From Patescibacteria group bacterium (GTDB lineage Bacteria > Patescibacteriota > Patescibacteriia > PEXW01), in assembly GCA_038063455.1 (NCBI GenBank), contig JBBTVB010000003.1, positions 1,714 to 65,713 on the forward strand: a DNA stretch of 64,000 nt, in the 5' to 3' direction. Numbering within the stretch: position 1 is the first letter of the stretch; every line of letters begins with the position of its first letter. Shown piece after piece: positions 5,760-61,169 of the stretch. The position numbers and the translations under genes were made by a program. The notes beneath the pieces were generated by a model, which saw nothing but the letters and a program-made list of their open reading frames with translations, made no database searches and was not told the DNA's origin.

Positions 5760-7481
5760 ATGACCCAAGCAACCGCCCTAGCAATTCTCCAAACCGGCGT
5801 GAATGTCTTTCTTACCGGTGAACCGGGCAGCGGCAAAACCCATACGGTAAACAGTTACGTGCGCTGGCTGCGCAGTCACGGCATACCACCCGCGATAACC
5901 GCCTCCACCGGCATTGCGGCCACCCACATTAGCGGGATGACTATCCATTCCTGGTGCGGCATTGGCATAAAAAAATCCCTTTCAACACACGACCTCAACG
6001 CCCTGGCGGCAAACGAACGCGTGGCCCGACGGGTTCGGAACACGAGCGTGCTGATTATTGACGAAGTGTCTATGCTCTCGGCACAGACGCTCGCCATGGC
6101 GGATGCGGTGTGCCGTAAAATCCGGCAGGATACTGCGCCTTTCGGCGGCCTGCAGGTTGTTGTGGTCGGTGACTTTTTCCAATTGCCGCCCGTGGTCCCC
6201 CAGGAAAACCGTGACAGTGCCCAACTCGGCTTTGGCGAAGACGCGGTGGACAGTGCGCCCTTCGCCTTCCGTTCCCCCGCGTGGGACTCCGCCCAGCCGG
6301 TGGTCTGCTATCTCACCGAACAGCACCGCCAGGAAGATGCCGAATTTCTTTCACTTCTTTCGGCTGTACGCTCGGGTACCGCCGATGAAGACACGCACAG
6401 TGCCCTGGCAGCGCGGCGCGCTGATGTAGAACGTACACCGCAAGATCTGCCTCGGCTCTACGCGCACAATGCCGACGTGGACCGCGTGAACGAAACACGC
6501 CTGGCCGCTATTCCTGGCATTGCAAAACACTATACGATGATTTCGCACGGCAAAGAAGGCTTGGTGGCTACGTTACAGCGCGGCTGCCTTTCGCCGGAAA
6601 CCCTCTCACTAAAAGTCGGTGCCCGCGTCATGTTTACCAAGAATAATCCTGACGGCAGTTTTGTAAATGGCACGGTGGGCGAAGTGCAAGGCTTTGGTGA
6701 TGAAGACCAACCGGTAGTACGAACCCTGCGCGGTCGGCGCATAGAAGTGGAGCCAATGGAATGGACGATTACTGACGGCACCCGCACGCTGGCACGCATT
6801 ACGCAGCTCCCCCTCCGGCTTGCCTGGGCAATAACTATTCACAAGAGCCAGGGCATGACCCTGGATGCAGCGGTTATGGACCTTTCGCAGGCCTTTGAGT
6901 ATGGCCAAGGCTACGTTGCGCTCTCGCGAGTGCGCTCGCTCACGGGGCTGCACCTGCTGGGCTGGAACGAGCGCTCACTGGAGGTGCATCCTGAAGTTAT
7001 TGCGCAGGATCAAAATTTTCAACAAAGCTCAATTACGGCGGAAACTACATGTGCCGCTAGGTCAAAAAAAGAACAGGCTGCGCTTGTCCACGCATTTATT
7101 GTAAGCTCCGGTGGCAAACCGGCAGGTGGGGTGGTGATGAGCACCCGGAAAAATACATCCCGCGGCTCAACCTACGATGTGACGCTCGAGCTGGTACACA
7201 GCGGCGCATCTATTCACAAAATTGCCAAAGCCCGTTCGCTCACCGAAGGGACAATTATCTCGCATATGCTCAAGCTCTTTACCGACGGCCGCCTGACCCG
7301 TGCCGAATTAGAACCGCTCATCTCCCCAGCGCTACAAAAGTCGTTACCAAAAATCCAGGCGGTATTTAAAACGCTTGACGTTGAGCACCTCTCACCAATC
7401 TTCGAAAAGTTGGGTGGCGCGTATTCCTATGATGATTTACGCATCGCCCGGGCACTGCTGGAAACAAGCACTCCTGAATAA
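5760..7481 (+). CDS. Pif1/RecD-like ATP-dependent DNA helicase with C-terminal HTH
   Basis: Walker A GEPGSGKTH, Walker B VLIIDEVSML, VVGDFFQLPPV, ITIHKSQG. The C-terminal ~90 aa resembles the helicase-associated HTH (HTH_40-like). Confidence 0.85.
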   Translation: MTQATALAILQTGVNVFLTGEPGSGKTHTVNSYVRWLRSHGIPPAITASTGIAATHISGMTIHSWCGIGIKKSLSTHDLNALAANERVARRVRNTSVLIIDEVSMLSAQTLAMADAVCRKIRQDTAPFGGLQVVVVGDFFQLPPVVPQENRDSAQLGFGEDAVDSAPFAFRSPAWDSAQPVVCYLTEQHRQEDAEFLSLLSAVRSGTADEDTHSALAARRADVERTPQDLPRLYAHNADVDRVNETRLAAIPGIAKHYTMISHGKEGLVATLQRGCLSPETLSLKVGARVMFTKNNPDGSFVNGTVGEVQGFGDEDQPVVRTLRGRRIEVEPMEWTITDGTRTLARITQLPLRLAWAITIHKSQGMTLDAAVMDLSQAFEYGQGYVALSRVRSLTGLHLLGWNERSLEVHPEVIAQDQNFQQSSITAETTCAARSKKEQAALVHAFIVSSGGKPAGGVVMSTRKNTSRGSTYDVTLELVHSGASIHKIAKARSLTEGTIISHMLKLFTDGRLTRAELEPLISPALQKSLPKIQAVFKTLDVEHLSPIFEKLGGAYSYDDLRIARALLETSTPE

Positions 7482-45363: not shown

Positions 45364-45391
45364 ATCTCGAGACCACTCTCGGGATTTTTTT
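45364..45391 (+). terminator. Rho-independent terminator
   Basis: ATCTCGAGA (45364-45372) / TCTCGGGAT (45377-45385) with one G-U, loop CCAC, T6 at 45386-45391 (overlaps the dnaN stop codon). Confidence 0.75.
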
Positions 45392-46499
45392 ATTGCCGAA
45401 TGGGCATGACCAAGTAGCGGAACATGGGCTGCAGCTTGTCTGGCGCTTTGGGCACGAGCAGGCCCGGCCCTTTTTCGTCGTTGAGCCGCAGCTCCACCTC
45501 GTCGCTACCCATAGCTTGCAGGCCATCCAATAAGAAGCGCCAGTTAAATACAATGCGCACCTCACCCCCGGTCACGCTCGCCGGAAAATGTGCCTCACCA
45601 GTACCAACCTGGGCATTAGCGGCGTTCACGGTCACTGCATCTGCGCTCGCCGCAGCGCTCAACGTCACGTCGTTGACGCCCGAGCGGCAGAACAAACTCA
45701 CCTGCCGCACCGTCTTGGCAAAGCTCTCAACCCCGGCGGTTACCTGGGTGGTAAAGGCCACTGGAATAATTTGCTCGTAGTCGGGGAACTGGCCTTCGAT
45801 GAGGCGTGAAACAATGTCGAGCTCGTCCGTGGTAAAACCCACCTGATTCTCACCCACCACCACACCCACCTCGCCACTCTCGGGCAGAATGCGGATAAGC
45901 TCCAGCAAGCTGCGGCTCGGCACAATTACCCGCTGCTCGTCTTTTGCTGTGGCGAGGGGCACTTGGGCCTCAGCCAAGCGGTAACTATCTGTGGCGGCAA
46001 ACGTAAGATGTTGGTTGTGGAGGTGGAGCAGCACGCCGCTGATTTCTGGGCGCGACTCGTCCGTAGCCACCGCAAACACCGTTTTACTCAAAGCGGCCTT
46101 TAGTGTTGCTACGGGCAGGCTAAAACGCGTGCCGTCTTGGACCTTCGGGATAACTGGAAAATCCTCTGCCGCCAAGCCTTTCAGGCTCGTCCTTGCGCCG
46201 CCGCCGGCTACCCGCAGCTCATTATTCTCCAGCTCAACAGTCACATTTCCAGTGGGCAGCAAGCTAGCGTAGTCCAGCAGCACCCGCGCCTGCACCGTAA
46301 AGCTACCAGTGGTATCAACCTTACCCCGAACTTTAGCGGTAATCCCAAGCTCTAAATTCGTCGAGATGAGGGTGATACCATCCTTCTCGGCGACCATAAG
46401 AATATTTTTCAAAATCGGCAGCGTGCTCGTGCGGCCAGTGATGTGACTCACACTCTGCAACCCTCGAACGAAGTTTTCTTGCGTGCAAGTGAATTTCAT
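45390..46499 (-). CDS. dnaN: DNA polymerase III beta sliding clamp
   Basis: MKFTCTQENFVRGLQSVSHITGRTSTLPILKNILM. Three-domain length. Immediately downstream of dnaA. Confidence 0.95.
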   Translation of the reverse strand: MKFTCTQENFVRGLQSVSHITGRTSTLPILKNILMVAEKDGITLISTNLELGITAKVRGKVDTTGSFTVQARVLLDYASLLPTGNVTVELENNELRVAGGGARTSLKGLAAEDFPVIPKVQDGTRFSLPVATLKAALSKTVFAVATDESRPEISGVLLHLHNQHLTFAATDSYRLAEAQVPLATAKDEQRVIVPSRSLLELIRILPESGEVGVVVGENQVGFTTDELDIVSRLIEGQFPDYEQIIPVAFTTQVTAGVESFAKTVRQVSLFCRSGVNDVTLSAAASADAVTVNAANAQVGTGEAHFPASVTGGEVRIVFNWRFLLDGLQAMGSDEVELRLNDEKGPGLLVPKAPDKLQPMFRYLVMPIRQ

Positions 46500-46727: not shown

Positions 46728-48098
46728 TCACATGTAGAGCCGCTGCTTGATGAGGGTGAGGTCTTGCTGGAGTTTAAGATCTTCTTTAAGTTGCCTCGTC
46801 ATTTTTTCGATTGCGTGCATAGCGGTGGAGTGGTCCCGGCCACCGAGCTCTTCGCCGATGGTTGGGAACGACGCTTGAATCTCTTCCCGCATGAGGTACA
46901 TAACTATTTGCCGCGGTTTTACCAGCTCTTGGCGGCGGCTCTGGCCCAGCACCTCAGAGACTTTTACGTCGTAGTACTGGCACACCGCCCCAATAATTTG
47001 CTTCGGCGTGACCGCGTGTTGCCGTTTGGTGTGCGTGGCTTGTGTAATGGAAGAGAGAATGTCTTTAATAGAGTCTACGGTGGGCGCGGTGTGGCTTAGG
47101 TTGTGTACCGCGACAATCCGGTTGAGCGCGCCTTCCAGCTCCCGGACGCTATTCTGGATGACGTTGGCAATGTATACCAGCGCGTCGTCACTCATGTGGA
47201 GTTTACGCTCGCTGCATTTGGCCCGCAGGATAGCAATGCGCGTTTCCAGGTCGGGTTCCTGCACGTCGGCGATCATCCCCCACTCAAAACGAGTAAGCAG
47301 CCGAGCTTCCAGCGCCGCAATGGCCTTGGGCGGCCGATCGGACGACAAGATGATTTGCTTATTTTCTTGGTGGAGCGTGTTGAAGGTGTGGAAGAACTCT
47401 TCTTGCGTTCCTTCTTTGCCAGTGAGGAACTGCACGTCGTCCACGAGCAGCACGTCGACCGACCGCCAGCGTTCGCGGAATTTTGCCATTGTCCCTTTGT
47501 AAATAGCCTGTACGAATTCGTTGGTGAATTGCTCGCAACTCACGTACAGGACACGAGCTTTTGGGCTGTGCGCCAGAATGCCGTGGCCAATGGCCTGCAT
47601 CAGGTGGGTCTTGCCCAAGCCCGCACCGCCGTAGATGAAGAGTGGATTGTAGATGTCGCCCGGCTTCTCGGCGCAAGCTTTGGCCGCGGCCTGGGCCAGC
47701 TCGTTGCCCTTACCAACGATAAAGGTGCCAAAGGTGTAGCGCGGGTTGAGGCCGCCCTTGCCCCCCATGGCCTTCAGCAAAGGGGCGGCTTCCTCGACCA
47801 CCTCGGGTGGGGCACTGGTTACCGCATCCACCGAGGCTTTTGGGCTTTCTACTCGGTAGGCAACGCTTGCTATCTCTTTCTCGGTTAGGTGTTGCAGGGC
47901 GTTGAGGATGTGAGAGTGGTATTTGGTCTCCAGCCAGGACTTTACGAAGTCCGTGGGCACGCCAATAACCGCCTGGTCGCCCTCAATGGTGCTGATGAAG
48001 GTGTTTTTGAACCAGGTCGTGAAGTTGGCTTTGCTCAAATGCAGCTCTAATTCGCCTAGTGTGGCTTCCCAGAGCTTATCATTTGGTAATTTCGGCAT
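46728..48098 (-). CDS. dnaA: Chromosomal replication initiator DnaA
   Basis: YTFGTFIVGKGNELA, NPLFIYGGAGLGKTHL, LLVDDVQFL, C-terminal DNA-binding domain HSTAMHAIEK. Confidence 0.97.
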   Translation of the reverse strand: MPKLPNDKLWEATLGELELHLSKANFTTWFKNTFISTIEGDQAVIGVPTDFVKSWLETKYHSHILNALQHLTEKEIASVAYRVESPKASVDAVTSAPPEVVEEAAPLLKAMGGKGGLNPRYTFGTFIVGKGNELAQAAAKACAEKPGDIYNPLFIYGGAGLGKTHLMQAIGHGILAHSPKARVLYVSCEQFTNEFVQAIYKGTMAKFRERWRSVDVLLVDDVQFLTGKEGTQEEFFHTFNTLHQENKQIILSSDRPPKAIAALEARLLTRFEWGMIADVQEPDLETRIAILRAKCSERKLHMSDDALVYIANVIQNSVRELEGALNRIVAVHNLSHTAPTVDSIKDILSSITQATHTKRQHAVTPKQIIGAVCQYYDVKVSEVLGQSRRQELVKPRQIVMYLMREEIQASFPTIGEELGGRDHSTAMHAIEKMTRQLKEDLKLQQDLTLIKQRLYM

Positions 48099-55384: not shown

Positions 55385-57970
55385 CTAGCTGGTTAGTTGC
55401 CGAAGCTTCGCTTTTGCCTCATCCAGTTTTTTTTGCTCCCCCGCCACGACGCTCGTTGGCGCGTTTTTGGCGAACGCTTGGTTAGCGAGCTTACGCTCTA
55501 AAGCCTGGATGTACTGTTGCAGGCTGGCAGCCCCTTTTTGAACTTCCGCGGTATCTCTTTTCACTGCAAGGAAGAAGAAGTTGACTCCACTAATGTGACC
55601 ATCCGGTTTACTTGATGTTTGCCGCTCCGCTTCAATTTTTTCAGGAAAGATTACTCTTGCGAGCGCCTGGAAAGTCCCTGCGTGCTGCACGAACAAGGAC
55701 TTTATCTTCATTGAACCCTTAAGGACAACCGGTTCAATAATATGAGGTGGAATTTTTTTGATTGCCCGAATATTGCGCATTTGCGTAACTGCATCCTGAA
55801 TAATCTGAAATTCCTTCGTAGCTATGGTTTTTTGAGTTTTGGCTTTGGGCCAAGCCTGAATCATCAGCATATCCTCGTTGGCTTTTCCATGGCGTTTCTC
55901 CCACAAGGCTTCGGTCACGAACGGGGCAAAGGGGTGCAGCAGCTTGAGCACGGTTTCGTACGCCTCAATAAGCAGTACAGTATTTGGCTGGATTTTCTGG
56001 ATTTCCACGTACCAGTCGGCCAGTTCGTGCCACACAAAGTCATAGAGTGCTTGGCCAGCTTCGGAGAGTTTGTTGCGCTGGAGGTTTTTTGTTACCTCGG
56101 TAATCAGCCAGTTCGTCCGCTCCCTTATCCACTTGTCCGCGAGGGAAATTCGACTACCCCCCTGCCCCCCTCCTCGGACAGGAGGGGGTGTGCGCTGTAG
56201 ACTCTCCTGTCGCTCCACAAAGTTCCCAATGTTCCACAGCTTATTGATGAAGTTGCGGTAGCCGGCAATCTTTTCCTCGCTCAAGCGGAAGTCCTGGCCC
56301 GGCGTGGTGCCCAGAATCAACGACAAGCGGATAGCATCCGTACCGTACTTCTCGGCCATGGGCAGCGGATCAATGCCCGTGCCTTTGCTCTTGGACATTT
56401 TCTTGCCGTGCTTATCCAGCACCAAGCCGTGAATGTACACTGTCTTAAATGGTACCTGCTTGGTGAATTTAAGGGAGAGCATGATCATTCGTGCCACCCA
56501 GAAGAACAGAATATCCCAGCCGGTTTCCATGACATTCGTTGGGTGGAAGGTTTGTAGGTCCTTGGTGTTTTTTGGCCAGCCCAGTGTGGAGAAGGTCCAC
56601 AAGCCGGAACTGAACCACGTGTCGAGCGTGTCTTGGTCTTGCACGAAGTGGACGCCTTTGCAGGTGGCGCACTTCTTTGGTTCGGTTACCGAGGCAACGG
56701 GCTTGCAGTCCTTGTCCATTTCATTGCGGCAGTACCACACCGGAATCTGGTGGCCCCACCACAGCTGACGCGAGATGCACCAGTCGCGGATGTTATGCAT
56801 CCAGTGGAAGTACACTTTGTCGAAGCGCTTGGGAATAAGCTGGATTTTCCCAGACTTTACAGCTGTAATAGCCGGCTTGGCCAAGGGCTGCATGGACATA
56901 AACCACTGCTTGCTCAACAGCGGTTGCACCACGGAGTTGCAGCGCTCGCAGTGCGGCACGTTGGCGGTATGGGGTTCGGTCTTTACCAGCAGGCCTTTGG
57001 CTTGGAGGTCGGCTACAATACTATCCCGCGCCTCGGTCACCAGCATGCCGGCATACTTGCCCGCGAGTTTGGTCATGCGGTTGTCCTCACCAATCACCTG
57101 CTTGATTTCCAGGTGGTGGCGCTCACCCATTTCCCAATCGGCCGGGTCGTGCGCCGGCGTAACTTTCACCACACCCGTCCCAAATTTCGGGTCAACCAGT
57201 TTATCGGCAACTACGGGTAAGGTCAGCTCGCCAGTCTCGGTGGCAAAGGTTATTTTTTTGCCAATGTACTTGGCGTAGCGTTTATCCGTTGGGTGCACAG
57301 CAAGTGCTGTATCGCCCACCTTGGTTTCGGGGCGGGTGGTGGCCACGGTGAATGGGCCGTAGGTAAGGTAGTAGAGGTGGCCGGCTTCTTGCACGTGTTT
57401 CACTTCCAAATCCGAGAGGGCGGTTTGGCAGCGGCTGCACCAGTGAATCAGGCGTTCACCACGATAAATGAGTCCCTCATCAAAAAGTTGGATGAAGGCT
57501 TTTTGCACGGCCAAGGTTAGGGCCGGGTCCATGGTAAAGTGCTCGCGGCTCCAGTCGCAGCTGGCGCCCAGCGCGCGCACCTGGTCGGTAATGCGGTCAC
57601 CATGCTTTTGCTTCCAGGCCCAGACATGTTTCAAAAACGTTTCCCGGCCAATTTCATGGCGGCTTATCCCCTCCTTCTGCAGCAAACGTTCCACCATAAT
57701 TTGCGTGGCAATGCCGGCGTGGTCCGTGCCCGGCACCCACAAGGCCTTTTCGCCGAGCATGCGATGGAAGCGCGTGAGAATATCTTGCACGCTCACACCC
57801 ACGGCATGGCCCAGGTGCAGCTCGCCGGTCACGTTGGGCGGAGGCATGGCAATGCTAAAGGCGTTCGTTCTTTTTCCGGGCAGGTTATCCGGATTGAAAT
57901 AGCCGGACGCCTCCCACCGTTTGTAGATGGGCTGTTCAACGCCGAGTGGATTGTACGCTTCGGATGCCAT
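55385..57970 (-). CDS. valS: Valine--tRNA ligase
   Basis: PPPNVTGELHLGHA (HIGH), KMSKSKGT (KMSKS), editing-domain signature TRPETKVGDTA, C-terminal coiled coil. Confidence 0.97.
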   Translation of the reverse strand: MASEAYNPLGVEQPIYKRWEASGYFNPDNLPGKRTNAFSIAMPPPNVTGELHLGHAVGVSVQDILTRFHRMLGEKALWVPGTDHAGIATQIMVERLLQKEGISRHEIGRETFLKHVWAWKQKHGDRITDQVRALGASCDWSREHFTMDPALTLAVQKAFIQLFDEGLIYRGERLIHWCSRCQTALSDLEVKHVQEAGHLYYLTYGPFTVATTRPETKVGDTALAVHPTDKRYAKYIGKKITFATETGELTLPVVADKLVDPKFGTGVVKVTPAHDPADWEMGERHHLEIKQVIGEDNRMTKLAGKYAGMLVTEARDSIVADLQAKGLLVKTEPHTANVPHCERCNSVVQPLLSKQWFMSMQPLAKPAITAVKSGKIQLIPKRFDKVYFHWMHNIRDWCISRQLWWGHQIPVWYCRNEMDKDCKPVASVTEPKKCATCKGVHFVQDQDTLDTWFSSGLWTFSTLGWPKNTKDLQTFHPTNVMETGWDILFFWVARMIMLSLKFTKQVPFKTVYIHGLVLDKHGKKMSKSKGTGIDPLPMAEKYGTDAIRLSLILGTTPGQDFRLSEEKIAGYRNFINKLWNIGNFVERQESLQRTPPPVRGGGQGGSRISLADKWIRERTNWLITEVTKNLQRNKLSEAGQALYDFVWHELADWYVEIQKIQPNTVLLIEAYETVLKLLHPFAPFVTEALWEKRHGKANEDMLMIQAWPKAKTQKTIATKEFQIIQDAVTQMRNIRAIKKIPPHIIEPVVLKGSMKIKSLFVQHAGTFQALARVIFPEKIEAERQTSSKPDGHISGVNFFFLAVKRDTAEVQKGAASLQQYIQALERKLANQAFAKNAPTSVVAGEQKKLDEAKAKLRQLTS

Positions 57971-57979
57971 AGTGCACTC

Positions 57980-57985
57980 ATCCTA
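57980..57985 (-). promoter_or_regulatory. -10-like TAGGAT, 9 nt before valS ATG
   Basis: Forward ATCCTA 57980-57985. ATG A at 57970. Confidence 0.35.
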
Positions 57986-57996
57986 GCAGCGTCTGG

Positions 57997-58025
57997 TTGA
58001 CATTTCCAGTGGTTTTTCGTACAAT
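57997..58025 (+). promoter_or_regulatory. Near-consensus promoter TTGACA-17-TACAAT
   Basis: TTGACA 57997-58002, 17-nt spacer, TACAAT 58020-58025. About 80-nt leader to the SD-led gene at 58112. Confidence 0.7.
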
Positions 58026-58111
58026 AATCCATTCTTTGAAAAATGCCCAAACATGGGACCGACCCTTACCGGATGTGAGGAAAAAAACAAAGCGAAAGGA
58101 GGGTGATAACA

Positions 58112-58729
58112 ATGGGCGCATTGATTACACCCGGACAGGAAAAACAACTGCGACGAATGCTAGTGGATGCAGTGGAAAATGGCGTAACGGAAGCCATTGA
58201 AAGTATCCCATTGGACCACTACATGGCGCAGACATTTCTGGAACAAGGAGACATGCTAACGAAAGCGTTGCTGAGCGATCTGCTAAAGCACGCCAAGCTG
58301 CTTGCGATGACGAGCAAGCATCGTGTCGATCTGAATGTTGATCCCATTGTGCCTGAGGGGTATACAGTAAAAGTACATCGCAAAGGTGGTATTTTTTACT
58401 ACGACAAGGAAAGGGTTGCGATCTACTATGCACCTGTACAAGCAATAGGCCGATCGGTTGGCGGCGCGGTATTTCTTGAAGCGTTCGCTGGTAAGGAGCC
58501 ATTTAATGCATGCCTCTTCGACTATTTGCTCTTGCATCCTGAGTTACCACGACCTATTGGACTCAACCTAGTGTTCTTGGGGACAGTGTTTCTAGACAAA
58601 TGGCGGAAAGAACATGTTCGTTTTTTACGCGTTGACCAATATGCATACGTGCATTATGGGATGCTACCATTCGATTTCAATTTTTTACATGATTGCCCAG
58701 CACTCATAAAAAAAGCATCGCCACATTGA
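58112..58729 (+). CDS. Hypothetical protein (205 aa)
   Basis: SD AAAGGAGGG (58095-58103) before ATG 58112 (the track starts at GTG 58103). AT-richer. No family recognised. Confidence 0.55.
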   Translation: MGALITPGQEKQLRRMLVDAVENGVTEAIESIPLDHYMAQTFLEQGDMLTKALLSDLLKHAKLLAMTSKHRVDLNVDPIVPEGYTVKVHRKGGIFYYDKERVAIYYAPVQAIGRSVGGAVFLEAFAGKEPFNACLFDYLLLHPELPRPIGLNLVFLGTVFLDKWRKEHVRFLRVDQYAYVHYGMLPFDFNFLHDCPALIKKASPH

Positions 58730-58741
58730 CATTGCTCGTTT

Positions 58742-58775
58742 ACCCAGCATTTCATCTGAGATGCTGGGTTTTTAT
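58742..58775 (+). terminator. Rho-independent terminator
   Basis: ACCCAGCAT (58742-58750) / ATGCTGGGT (58761-58769), then TTTTT. Confidence 0.8.
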
Positions 58776-58830
58776 TATCTTCCCATTTCCCACACCGGGT
58801 TCACGTCGAGCTTTTTACTTGGGCTAGATG
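58775..58830 (-). pseudogene. Remnant copy of the tsaD 3' end
   Basis: The minus-strand translation SPSKKLDVNPVWEMGR* matches the TsaD C-terminus TPWQKLDVNPVWEVGR*. About 32 of 39 nt are identical to 59565-59603 by hand alignment. Confidence 0.6.
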
Positions 58831-58841
58831 CCGCGCGTCTC

Positions 58842-59366
58842 CTATTCAACTCTGTCGACGTACTTGCTCAGATCTTTTGTCAGTGCCCACCAAAGCGATG
58901 TCTTGGTCGTGCTGGGTAGAGGTGCTGCGGGTATGGTCAACGTGTCGTCCTGCAACTCCGCATAGGTAAATTTTCCCGGGGCGAAAAGGTATACGTACGC
59001 TGGGTAGTCTGGATTCGGGTGTTTGAGGAAGTTAATGGCACCATCCTTGTTTACAACCTCTCGTAGAAACAGCGCTTGTCGGTAGTCATTGTTTGGCGTC
59101 TGGAATGGGTCGCTAGCCGGCGCGAGTGCGCTGTAGGCGTAGAAGCGGAACGTGCCCGCGAATGTCGGGCTGGCCTTGTAGTAGACGCACAGGGTGGCTC
59201 CGTAGAAACCCAGAAGTGCGAAGAGCCCAGCAATCGCAAGACCAGTTTTTTTCCAGGCGGTCACGCGCACCTTCACAATCATCCAAACAACACCCGCAAA
59301 CGCAAGAATGAATATTGGGAGGAGGACGTATAGGAAGAAGGTGTTCGTGCCGAGATTTGGGTCCAT
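58842..59366 (-). CDS. Hypothetical membrane protein (174 aa)
   Basis: Two N-terminal TM segments, then a soluble domain. No family recognised. Confidence 0.55.
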   Translation of the reverse strand: MDPNLGTNTFFLYVLLPIFILAFAGVVWMIVKVRVTAWKKTGLAIAGLFALLGFYGATLCVYYKASPTFAGTFRFYAYSALAPASDPFQTPNNDYRQALFLREVVNKDGAINFLKHPNPDYPAYVYLFAPGKFTYAELQDDTLTIPAAPLPSTTKTSLWWALTKDLSKYVDRVE

Positions 59367-59456
59367 ATGTTTTGGTGATTAGTGATGAATGACGTAGTAG
59401 TGCGGCTGTGTATAGTATACGTCTCTGCTTCCCTATCTCCCACTTTGGTTATTTAT

Positions 59457-59560
59457 TTGTCATCCCGAGCCCCGCACATGCGGGACGAGGGATCTCGCAT
59501 TTTGGAGAGTCATAAATTCGAGATTCCTCCCCCTCGATAAACTCGGGGTCGGAATGACAA
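59457..59560. repeat. 104-nt inverted-repeat / nested-stem element
   Basis: Terminal arms TTGTCAT+CCCGAG (59457-59469) vs CTCGGG...ATGACAA (59542-59560). Inner 11-bp stem GAGGGATCTCG (59487-59497) / CGAGATTCCTC (59519-59529) with one G-U. Small hairpin CCCGC-ACAT-GCGGG (59471-59484). Confidence 0.5.
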
Positions 59561-59564
59561 GAGG

Positions 59565-60590
59565 CTACCTTCCCACTTCCCACACTGGGTTCACATCCAG
59601 TTTCTGCCAAGGCGTCGAATGTCCACGTGCAAGCTCCATTGCGCCAGCCACAGCGATCATGGCGCCGTTGTCTGTGGTGTACTGCAGTGGAGCGACGCTG
59701 AAGTGAAAGCCGGCAGCTTGTGACTCTTTCGCCAGGCGCTCACGCAGTACGCTATTTGCCGCGACGCCACCCCCAAGGAGAATGCACTTGGGTTTTTTTG
59801 TTTGTGCGGCGCGGAGTGTTTTACCCACCAGCACATCCACAATTGCGGTTTGTACCGAGGCGGCCAAGTCGGCTTTGCCTTGCGGGTTCAGGCGCGGGTG
59901 TTTTTGCACAAATGTTGCGACGGCAGTTTTGAGGCCGGCAAAGCTAAACTCAAAGTTTTGTTCTTTCAGCATTGGCCGTGGCAGTGGGATAATTGCCCTG
60001 CCCTTGAGTGCCAGTTGCCCAATAGCTGGGCCGCCAGGGTAGGGCAAGCCCATGAGCTTGGCGGCTTTATCAAAACATTCGCCTGCTGCGTCGTCGCGGG
60101 TTTTGCCGATGAGTTTCACTTTGTCTTTTTCCAGCCACAACAGTTCTGTGTGGCCGCCAGAAACAACCAGCGCCAGCGCGGGGAGTTGCGGTTGCGTATC
60201 GTTGAGCCAGCAACTCGCCAAATGGCCGGCAATATGGTTTACGCCGATGAGCGGCTTGTTGAGCGCAAAGCTCAGCGTGCGTGCGGTTTCGACGCCCACC
60301 AGTAGCGCGGTGCTTAAGCCCGGGCCACTCGTCACGGCAATCGCATCAATGCCCGCCAGCTTGGTGTGGGCTTTTCGGAGCGCGGCTTCCAACGTCGGCA
60401 TGATAGTGGCCGCGTGTTCCCGCGCCGCAACCTCCGGCACCACGCCGCCGGTCTTGCGGTGGGCCAGGACTTGCGATGCTGTGACCATACTGATCACGCG
60501 ATAGCACCCGCGGTGCGTTTCCACCACGGCAATAGACGTGTCGTCGCAGGATGTCTCGATGCCGAGGATGGTGTGGTATGGGGCTGACAT
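59565..60590 (-). CDS. tsaD: tRNA N6-adenosine threonylcarbamoyltransferase TsaD
   Basis: ILGIETSCDDTS, GVVPEVAAREH, VTSGPGLSTALLVG, VNHIAGH, GGGVAAN. Confidence 0.95.
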   Translation of the reverse strand: MSAPYHTILGIETSCDDTSIAVVETHRGCYRVISMVTASQVLAHRKTGGVVPEVAAREHAATIMPTLEAALRKAHTKLAGIDAIAVTSGPGLSTALLVGVETARTLSFALNKPLIGVNHIAGHLASCWLNDTQPQLPALALVVSGGHTELLWLEKDKVKLIGKTRDDAAGECFDKAAKLMGLPYPGGPAIGQLALKGRAIIPLPRPMLKEQNFEFSFAGLKTAVATFVQKHPRLNPQGKADLAASVQTAIVDVLVGKTLRAAQTKKPKCILLGGGVAANSVLRERLAKESQAAGFHFSVAPLQYTTDNGAMIAVAGAMELARGHSTPWQKLDVNPVWEVGR

Positions 60591-60848
60591 GTGGGCTAGT
60601 GAAGAGTAGTATTATGTAGTTGAAAAGGAAAATATACAAACCCCAAAAGGAGTATTGTCGTGAATAAGGTCGGCAGTGATCGTGTAAAAGAAATTGTACG
60701 CAGCGTCATTGTGCACTAACGGAGTGACGGTGAGCTTGAGTATTTGCTATTTCCAAAGAACAAAGCATGTCAGGCGTTACGCGCGAAAGTTTGAATGCGT
60801 AAGAGGCACAGTTTTTCCCGGAGAAGGAAAAAACCGGTAGGAGGAATT

Positions 60849-61169
60849 GTGCGTGAAACTGCAGAAGAATATGGCATCACTGTGATCCGTGTGGGTCGAG
60901 TCATCTACGAGGAAGAACGAGAATGGATTGCGTTTCCGGATGATACGGAATTTTACGATCTATATCGTGCGCGCTACTATGAAGTGGAAACTGAACCAAT
61001 TACGAATGTTCGCTTGAGTTGTGAGCATAGTGGTTCAATCTGGCTGACAATACCAGAAATTGCACGGATTTCTGCTTGCATTCGGCCTAGATGCTTTGCG
61101 GCTCTTCAGCAATTCCACATTAGCGTTAAAAGCGCAGAGATTACAGTTGTACAAGAGTGTTTAGTTTAG
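60849..61169 (+). CDS. Hypothetical protein (106 aa from GTG 60849; 124 aa if ATG 60795)
   Basis: Track ORF 60795-61169. The strong SD TAGGAGGA (60838-60845) precedes the in-frame GTG 60849. No family recognised. Confidence 0.45.
   Translation: MRETAEEYGITVIRVGRVIYEEEREWIAFPDDTEFYDLYRARYYEVETEPITNVRLSCEHSGSIWLTIPEIARISACIRPRCFAALQQFHISVKSAEITVVQECLV

Follow-up and report, generated by a model that had tools for sequence, protein, structure and literature searches.

What could place a second copy of the last codons of an essential tRNA-modification gene downstream of the gene itself, in the same orientation and with other DNA in between? The question is raised by tsaD in a 64,000-nucleotide stretch from a Patescibacteria group bacterium (assembly GCA_038063455.1, contig JBBTVB010000003.1, positions 1,714 to 65,713), which was analysed as a whole and is called the window below. 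A sequence-only reading had noticed that the last ~42 nt of tsaD recur 790 bp downstream. We confirm this duplication and report displaced tsaD ends in four further lineages, inside the spacer between tsaD and valS. We suggest, with a probability of roughly one in two, that they are relics of site-specific, Campbell-type insertions at an attachment site formed by the tsaD end, made by a recombinase that acts in trans or has since been lost.

Duplication of the tsaD 3' end in the window

The direct repeat pairs positions 58776-58813 with 59566-59603 (38 nt, 32 of them identical or 84%, at a spacing of 790), and the coordinates first given for it hold. A nhmmer profile built on the tsaD ends of ten relatives scores the downstream copy (att3) at E = 4e-10, and a 26-nt degenerate pattern has two matches in the 64 kb, which are the two repeat copies, with two matches in none of 100 shuffles; chance similarity is thereby ruled out. 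An assembly artefact is excluded as well, because the locus is 99.9-100% identical in three further assemblies of the same population, made independently from other Hainich groundwater samples, and all four share its structure. The window sequence is contained in contig CAYIMS010000004.1 of a Patescibacteria metagenome-assembled genome (MAG) from Hainich groundwater (GCA_964364675.1). We also considered the template and variable repeats of a diversity-generating retroelement. No reverse-transcriptase domain is present, the mismatches between the gene-proximal copy (att1) and att3 are of several kinds (A/G, G/C, T/C, A/G, G/A, G/A and G/A) and not adenine-specific, most of them are silent, and the repeat measures 38-42 nt, not ~100-150 nt. 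With the small size of the repeat as the sole point in their favour, chance, mis-assembly and such a retroelement have together a practically negligible probability.

Read by codons, att3 is an in-frame tsaD end on the minus strand that translates as KKLDVNPVWEMGR followed by its own TAA stop, as had been claimed, and the functional end translates as QKLDVNPVWEVGR followed by a stop. With the first codon set aside, the remaining 13 (39 nt) differ at seven positions. Six of these changes are silent, at third positions or from stop to stop, and the probability that at least six of seven random substitutions are silent is 2.3e-4. It follows that att1 and att3 both evolved as coding ends, each diverging while it closed a working tsaD. 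On the minus strand the order is tsaD (with att1), inverted-repeat element, att2, membrane-protein gene (memb), att3, hairpin, orf208 (plus strand) and valS. The features are listed below with the relatives, denoted by L numbers, to which they were compared.

59565-60590, minus strand: tsaD, intact, 341 aa (Pfam TsaD, E = 2e-90; relatives 65-90% identical).
59565-59606, minus strand: att1, functional tsaD 3' end (last 13 codons and stop), the gene-proximal repeat copy.
59457-59560, minus strand: nested inverted-repeat element, 104 nt, the sole cargo between att1 and att2, beginning 4 nt past the tsaD stop.
59423-59450, minus strand: att2, putative decayed remnant of a tsaD end (AACCAAAGTGGGAGATAGGGAAGCAGAG) that has lost its stop codon; gap-free alignment with relatives.
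59367-59422, minus strand: memb leader, homologous to the DNA right after the tsaD stop in L007, L013, L022 and L043.
58842-59366, minus strand: memb, membrane-protein gene, 174 aa, with N-terminal helices and a beta-rich C-terminal domain.
58817-58841, minus strand: 25-nt tail from the memb stop to att3; gapped alignment with the L017 tsaD end.
58775-58816, minus strand: att3, displaced in-frame tsaD 3' end with its own TAA stop.
58742-58769, no strand assigned: hairpin terminator between att3 and the convergent orf208.
58103-58729, plus strand: orf208, orphan gene convergent on the old tsaD end; no Pfam match.
55385-57970, minus strand: valS, conserved right-hand boundary of the variable spacer (tsaD-valS synteny in relatives).

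The membrane-protein gene and the 104-nt element, seen between the repeats from the start, are both real, but a further decayed remnant, att2, also lies there, between the inverted-repeat element and memb, as a third copy of the tsaD end. Taken alone, att2 is not significant against the tsaD-end profile (E = 52). Together with the leader it aligns without gaps with the remnant and memb leader of L006 and with the tsaD end and leader of L007 and L013, and both att2 and the L006 remnant have lost one base relative to tsaD (ATAACC). The description of the whole 0.8 kb as one bracketed cassette had to be abandoned: memb follows an intact tsaD directly, with no repeat downstream, in L022, L007 and L013, and the inverted-repeat element is a separate, lineage-specific insert, divided from memb by att2.

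The strong hairpin at 58742-58769 is real, with 13-nt arms, and is terminator-like with a T-tract on the plus strand. The proposal that the remnant and hairpin mark where an ancestral tsaD ended agrees with the relatives, as the pair aligns best with, and resembles, the native tsaD stop and terminator of L017/L025. The 25-nt tail at 58817-58841 may be a weak upstream extension of the att3 remnant; its alignment with the L017 tsaD end reaches -63, weakly and with gaps.

Recurrence in the spacer of related lineages

Relatives were gathered by TsaD-based genome and metagenome scans, plus look-ups of the closest TsaD and memb homologues. The 16 distinct lineages have TsaD proteins 65-90% identical to that of the window and all keep tsaD followed by valS, with a spacer whose content differs in almost every lineage. 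The comparison with relatives that had been proposed in search of an empty site did find one, in L010. Spacers range as follows.

L010: empty, tsaD and valS 40 nt apart.
L022 (closest, 90% TsaD identity): tsaD, memb and valS, nothing further.
L007 and L013: memb directly after tsaD, other genes next.
L043: a locus of the L022/L007 type with, in addition, a terminator, a reverse 80-aa open reading frame (ORF) and a 30-nt duplicate.
L023, L025 (the same as L017), L036, L038 and L040: terminators and small reverse genes.
L009: forward ORF151.
L015: 3.8 kb, including a radical S-adenosylmethionine (radical-SAM) gene.

The profile of ten tsaD ends was run over 164 kb from 13 lineages at E <= 0.2, L043 being fetched later. 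Besides the genuine gene ends it found six extra copies (one each in the window, L008 and L006, three in L015) at E values from 4e-10 to 0.2, of which the two weakest (E = 0.014 and 0.2, both in L015) count by position and orientation only. The 30-nt copy in L043 (E = 1e-8) is the seventh. All seven stand on the tsaD strand and inside the tsaD-valS spacer, the spacers making up 15.8 of the 164 kb searched. Remnants are present in five lineages including the window, with a maximum array of three in L015, and absent from 11 of the 16. With an equivalent profile of the valS 5' end and promoter, no additional copy turned up in the 164 kb of the 13 lineages. Each ORF of at least 100 aa was also checked for a downstream copy of its last 45 nt. 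Of the 60 ORFs of the window only tsaD stands out, with a score of 23 where the others reach 12 at most, and among 175 genes of the relatives the top three places are all taken by tsaD; none of the 235 genes tested, tsaD excepted, shows a duplicated end. A borderline candidate in L011 (score 13.5, rank 6 of 175) was not counted.

The geometry that the sequence-only reading had recognised, in which DNA enters the 3' end of tsaD, supplies a replacement end and displaces the old one, recurs in these four other lineages. Each lineage has its own, unrelated cargo between the functional end and the remnant:

Window: inverted-repeat element, 116 nt with its flanks.
L006: terminator and reverse coiled-coil ORF.
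L043: terminator and reverse 80-aa membrane ORF.
L008: two mini-ORFs.
L015: ORF151, a 196-aa ORF and the radical-SAM gene, with three remnants separating them.

L043 and L006 belong to different TsaD clades and their nearer relatives L022 and L013 are without insert, so insertion between tsaD and memb happened more than once. The radical-SAM cassette in the array of L015 (7426-8796, minus strand) encodes a 456-aa protein that weakly resembles prokaryotic viperins (PADLOC pVip, E = 4e-9), over the radical-SAM core only. Separately, the clade with 65-67% TsaD identity has a conserved G/T-rich stretch of ~60 nt (TTGNGGGNTNGANGGTTTGGGTTTGGATNGAGGTNTAGATGG...) after the tsaD stop, with or without cargo following (L009 1113-1180, L015 6051-6115, L040 1885-1950).

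The junctions share one sharp edge. Over six remnants, mean identity to the cognate gene end is 0.78 from -27 to -1 and 0.42 from -39 to -28, falling to 0.23 further upstream (background) and 0.25 right after the stop codon. The right boundary is always at the stop codon, and the left junction lies at -27 to -30 in att2 of the window, L006, L008 and L043. Every remnant and the DNA downstream of it resemble a native block of tsaD end and downstream sequence: for example, the memb leader comes next after the remnants of L006 and L043, just as it does after the intact tsaD of L007, L013 and L022. The functional tsaD of L043 ends in ELGI, whereas 14 of the other 15 lineages end in GR and L023 in GK; such an atypical end is what an element-supplied replacement would look like. 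No clear mosaic breakpoint was seen inside tsaD in sliding identity against eight relatives, which are too diverged for this (69-79% nucleotide identity). The idea that the right edge of the cargo is the valS promoter of a second, concatenated spacer allele was dropped, the left flanks lying within the null (P = 0.06-1.0).

Origin of the displaced ends

Several features together argue for a site-directed process: the displaced ends are restricted to tsaD and fixed in orientation, their right boundary is sharp, their left junctions partly cluster, valS shows no such ends, and there is a close formal match to the integrase-less modules, and to the islands, described below. In the mechanism that we favour, the last ~25-40 nt of tsaD, stop codon included, would act as attachment sequence, and incoming DNA carrying its own copy of the tsaD end would enter in a Campbell-like manner. 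After insertion TsaD would be complete, with the cargo next and the previous end pushed downstream as a co-oriented remnant. The joining would be done by a site-specific recombinase, encoded elsewhere or lost, and the present modules would be its decayed, integrase-less relics. The window would then hold two stacked scars. Because the distal att3 is pristine and the proximal att2 decayed, the latest event would have joined a block of tsaD end, inverted-repeat element, att2 and memb to a block of tsaD end, terminator and orf208, rather than memb hopping alone.

Several observations weigh against this mechanism. Neither the 16 spacers nor the Pfam-annotated flanks (which reach 10 kb at most on the window contig and are shorter in the other loci) yielded an integrase or transposase, which bears out, for the spacer ORFs and annotated flanks, the earlier statement that the window has none; for L006 to L011, L013, L015 and L017, which have no Pfam annotation, spacers were read, tblastn was run with six window proteins and Pfam was applied to selected ORFs. 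The 60 window ORFs include none that is XerD-like, by a weak test. A search of IMG/VR for an element-borne attachment site (attP) with three degenerate tsaD-end patterns gave 0, 2 and 0 matches; the strict pattern had none, and the two, which came from a looser one, are unrelated protein C-termini (...DPVWEFGW and ...YPVWEFGG, each before the stop), judged to be chance. The pristine distal and decayed proximal remnants are the reverse of what simple serial insertion beside tsaD would leave. Left boundaries are not uniform, those outside the cluster ranging from -20 to -42, and the strain-level assemblies show no polymorphism at the locus. Furthermore, spacers have also gained DNA without leaving a remnant (memb in L022 compared with L010, ORF151 in L009 compared with L040), and much of the cargo resembles the ordinary spacer content of other lineages, a terminator and a small reverse gene.

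The main rival, to which we give a lower but appreciable probability, is the exchange of spacer alleles between related Patescibacteria by natural transformation, with one end joined illegitimately near the tsaD stop. Both crossovers would normally be homologous, in tsaD and valS, with an occasional microhomology join where homology stops; in a variant, a circle with ~30-40 nt of tsaD homology would be taken in by one RecA-mediated crossover. In both cases two spacer alleles would be concatenated and a short duplicate of the tsaD end left behind. Integration of DNA that has homology on one side only is well established for homology-facilitated illegitimate recombination (HFIR; PMC3240628), and the locus resembles its products in having foreign DNA beside a conserved anchor gene, no mobility genes and junctions near the end of homology. 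The native look of the blocks formed by the remnants and their downstream DNA (att3 and terminator as in L017, L006 and L043 remnants and memb leader as in L007 and L013) fits such an exchange, as do the cargo beside tsaD, which is often a terminator and small reverse gene as in L023, L025 and L036, the silent-site pattern, by which both ends come from working tsaD alleles, the lack of an integrase in the spacers and flanks examined, and the variable left boundaries. The window also encodes a type IV pilus/type II secretion system ATPase. Moreover, memb of the window is 82% identical to that of L006 and 80% to that of L022, and TsaD gives 84% and 90% for the same pairs, an incongruence that points to exchange between lineages. 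However, seven or eight duplicates of the tsaD end stand against none of the valS 5' end or promoter, and an anchor-based process should work from either flank, with no preference for tsaD. Four junctions cluster at -27 to -30, the left flanks of junctions are no more similar to valS upstream regions than the null, no donor partner of the junctions is recognisable there, and the GI end of L043 is not a normal tsaD allele. HFIR is moreover known from laboratory selections, and to our knowledge the published cases involve loss of recipient DNA rather than short duplications.

The duplicate might instead have arisen in place, the window lineage copying its own tsaD end when a staggered break was filled in, say, or when slippage gave a tandem duplication, and unrelated DNA arriving later. 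What speaks for this is that att1 and att3 share the lineage-specific states GGA AGR in their last 15 nt, where relatives have GGG for Gly (GGA only in L007 and L015) and mostly CGN for Arg. A non-coding att3 should, however, hold most of the changes, at random codon positions, which is at odds with six of seven being silent (P = 2e-4); in addition, such scars with different cargo arose independently in L043, L008 and L015, and memb, between the copies, is older than the pristine remnant. We regard this origin as quite improbable. Still less probable is that remnants are kept for a function, as a regulatory or terminator-associated sequence, a reserve tsaD C-terminus or a short peptide, the last of these from a TTG-initiated 24-codon frame ending in ...KKLDVNPVWEMGR. 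The last 24-30 nt of att3 and of the L006 and L043 remnants are indeed far better preserved than the sequence to their left, and att3 keeps an open frame and a stop. Against this, there is no ORF of at least 30 aa, most lineages (11 of 16) do without a remnant, att2 and the second L015 remnant (r2) are clearly decayed, and remnants occur in differing contexts, before a terminator, a forward gene or reverse genes.

The site-specific insertion that we favour has known counterparts. Cis-mobilizable elements (CIMEs; 1.2-13 kb) and gene-free microCIMEs (130-220 bp) are decayed, integrase-less elements flanked by attachment (att) sites and stacked in tandem at the 3' ends of the housekeeping genes fda, rpsI and rpmG in Streptococcus salivarius and S. 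thermophilus (PMC7563491). The tsaD modules are likewise att-flanked and without recombination or conjugation genes, their arrays are split by gene-end copies and the target gene is intact. The size classes agree too: the gene-free module of ~116 nt would be the equivalent of a microCIME, and those of 0.4-1.4 kb, which hold one or two cargo genes, are the equivalent of small CIMEs. The streptococcal modules differ in that they adjoin an integrative and conjugative (ICE) or mobilizable (IME) element whose integrase recognises the att site, whereas annotated flanks, tblastn and spacer reading brought up no such integrase-bearing partner in the 16 tsaD lineages. In streptococci decay is greatest in the most distal module; among the remnants of the window, the distal one is the least decayed. 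The tsaD locus also lies in another phylum, the Patescibacteria, and at another target gene, and its modules are known from sequence only.

Larger, integrase-encoding islands leave the same kind of mark. Salmonella genomic island 1 (SGI1) has the 3' end of trmE as its target site. A regenerated target with a displaced fragment is what defines islands (PMC4383910), and the tRNA-gene islands listed in Islander (PMC4383910) and elements with dusA-specific integrases (PMC4482086) share with tsaD the regenerated target, the co-oriented displaced fragment and an element-supplied replacement end with mostly silent differences; tandem arrays are known from SGI1 (PMC2297512). The empty site and reuse by unrelated cargo are found at tsaD as well. 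Such islands carry their own integrase beside one att site and measure kb to tens of kb, unlike the tsaD modules, in which no integrase was found; Islander requires an integrase gene for a call, a filter that the tsaD locus would fail. ARAGORN found no tRNA or tmRNA gene near the locus, and the remnants have no Rfam match, with all families at E <= 10 on 58000-61000 and at gathering score on the whole window. The microcin H47 genomic island is said to lack an integrase of its own, and its excision has reportedly been demonstrated by experiment. Next to this island and other small integrase-less islands mobilised in trans (PMC3191183), the tsaD modules are 10-100 times smaller and have been seen as sequence only.

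A bolder idea, to which we give a small chance, is that the tsaD end is the fixed entry point of a cassette-capture system in the ultra-small genomes of Patescibacteria, served by a trans-acting recombinase or by an integrase-independent homology route of ~25-40 nt, an integron-like hotspot built on the terminus of a coding gene and not on attI/attC. Promoter-bearing mini-cassettes, down to ~116 nt, would be inserted and perhaps excised, with the copy of the tsaD end as the sole recombination site of each. The likeness to integrons is one of logic only: a fixed chromosomal entry point, small unrelated cassettes added serially and a recombinase encoded outside them. Integrons proper are rejected, no recombinase (no intI) having been found among the window ORFs and attC hairpins being absent, the remnants being direct copies of coding sequence and not imperfect palindromes, the inverted-repeat element having no R''/R' core sites and the cargo standing in mixed orientation with its own promoters and terminators. 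Xer/dif-type and integron-type sites were also rejected by eye, the repeat being coding sequence without convincing dyad symmetry.

The tsaD locus is therefore not surprising in kind: it fits the well-known paradigm of a regenerated target and displaced fragment solidly, and is a known type of scar in a new phylum and target gene with an unusually complete absence of integrase. Its interest lies in the host group: the genomes of Patescibacteria (the candidate phyla radiation, CPR) are tiny, few mobile elements have been recognised in them, genetics is lacking, and their gain of accessory genes is poorly understood. Here a hotspot is defined by sequence in the last codons of an essential gene, with an empty site, intermediates and as many as three scars in one array. 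The recombinase or an attP-bearing donor can be sought with it, and it offers a natural test of site-specific capture against sloppy allele exchange after DNA uptake in small-genome bacteria; should the enzyme be found, the ~30-nt site might become a landing pad with which to engineer these bacteria.

Intervening DNA and neighbouring genes

The inverted-repeat element is predicted to fold as a closed four-way junction (-55.8 kcal/mol, z = -5.2) and has terminal inverted repeats of ~12-16 nt. A search for other copies, as had been proposed, was made with this element and brought up no real one: it is single-copy in the 64-kb window (at up to three mismatches) and absent from the relatives' loci compared, plasmids, phages and viral contigs, the three IMG/VR matches all being chance coding sequence. 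It has no Rfam match at E <= 10. An origin as a transposon or miniature inverted-repeat transposable element with target duplication appears unlikely, as the flanking repeat is a 27-nt decayed tsaD end and not a short target duplication, and the element is single-copy in the window.

The memb gene is a real conserved gene with 21 homologues, none of which has a recorded Pfam domain, and it has no Pfam or PADLOC match itself. Its AlphaFold model (pLDDT, the predicted local distance difference test, of 82) has no fold match in the PDB by Foldseek, and no homologue was found in viral contigs. It adjoins tsaD in six lineages, and because its divergence roughly follows that of TsaD, it is an old resident of the locus. 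Distant homologues (43-54% identity) sit in unrelated contexts, so the family moves. In L020 (4902-7369), a more distant Patescibacteria MAG, an insert of ~1.4 kb interrupts a FabH-like gene and separates its N-terminal from its C-terminal part. This insert holds an ORF for a secreted protein, a homologue of memb at 43% identity and a 45-aa ORF (product ...SRGLAAGWTFTHIAF...), the last of these helix-turn-helix-like at a guess by eye. In L021 (9779-11280) the 35-nt sequence GCAAAACGCTTCGATTTGAAGCCCATTTGGGCTGG forms a perfect inverted pair bracketing the gene of a 494-aa large serine recombinase, ~3.5 kb downstream of a memb homologue (6001-6387); this recombinase unit looks invertible or insertion-sequence-like.

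On the valS side, orf208 matches itself alone among 5.8 billion proteins, and as an orphan it gave no homologue through which a donor allele of att3 could be traced. The L006 gene at its position is 29% identical, and the flanking TsaD, memb and ValS are 81-84% identical there, which suggests that orf208 is either extremely fast-evolving or replaced. The ~25 nt upstream of the valS start (CGCTGGTAGGATGAGTGCACT-ATG; window 57971-58010) are near-invariant among lineages whose coding DNA is 70-80% identical, and constraint is therefore suggested, as on a promoter or leader.

On the other side, the 124-aa ORF divergent from tsaD (60795-61169, plus strand) has a weak, sub-threshold NUDIX match (E = 0.0024). 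Most gene-called relatives have ORFs of 170-197 aa at this position, about half of them annotated as NUDIX, and the window ORF looks truncated or decayed. Finally, positions 47553-47633 (plus strand) match the Rfam family AsdA, the antisense RNA of dnaA mRNA (57.7 bits for a gathering score of 52). The match lies antisense within a 456-aa DnaA-like ORF (46728-48098, minus strand), which is adjoined by a DnaN-like ORF (45390-46499, minus strand), and a replication origin is probably located near 48.1-48.5 kb.

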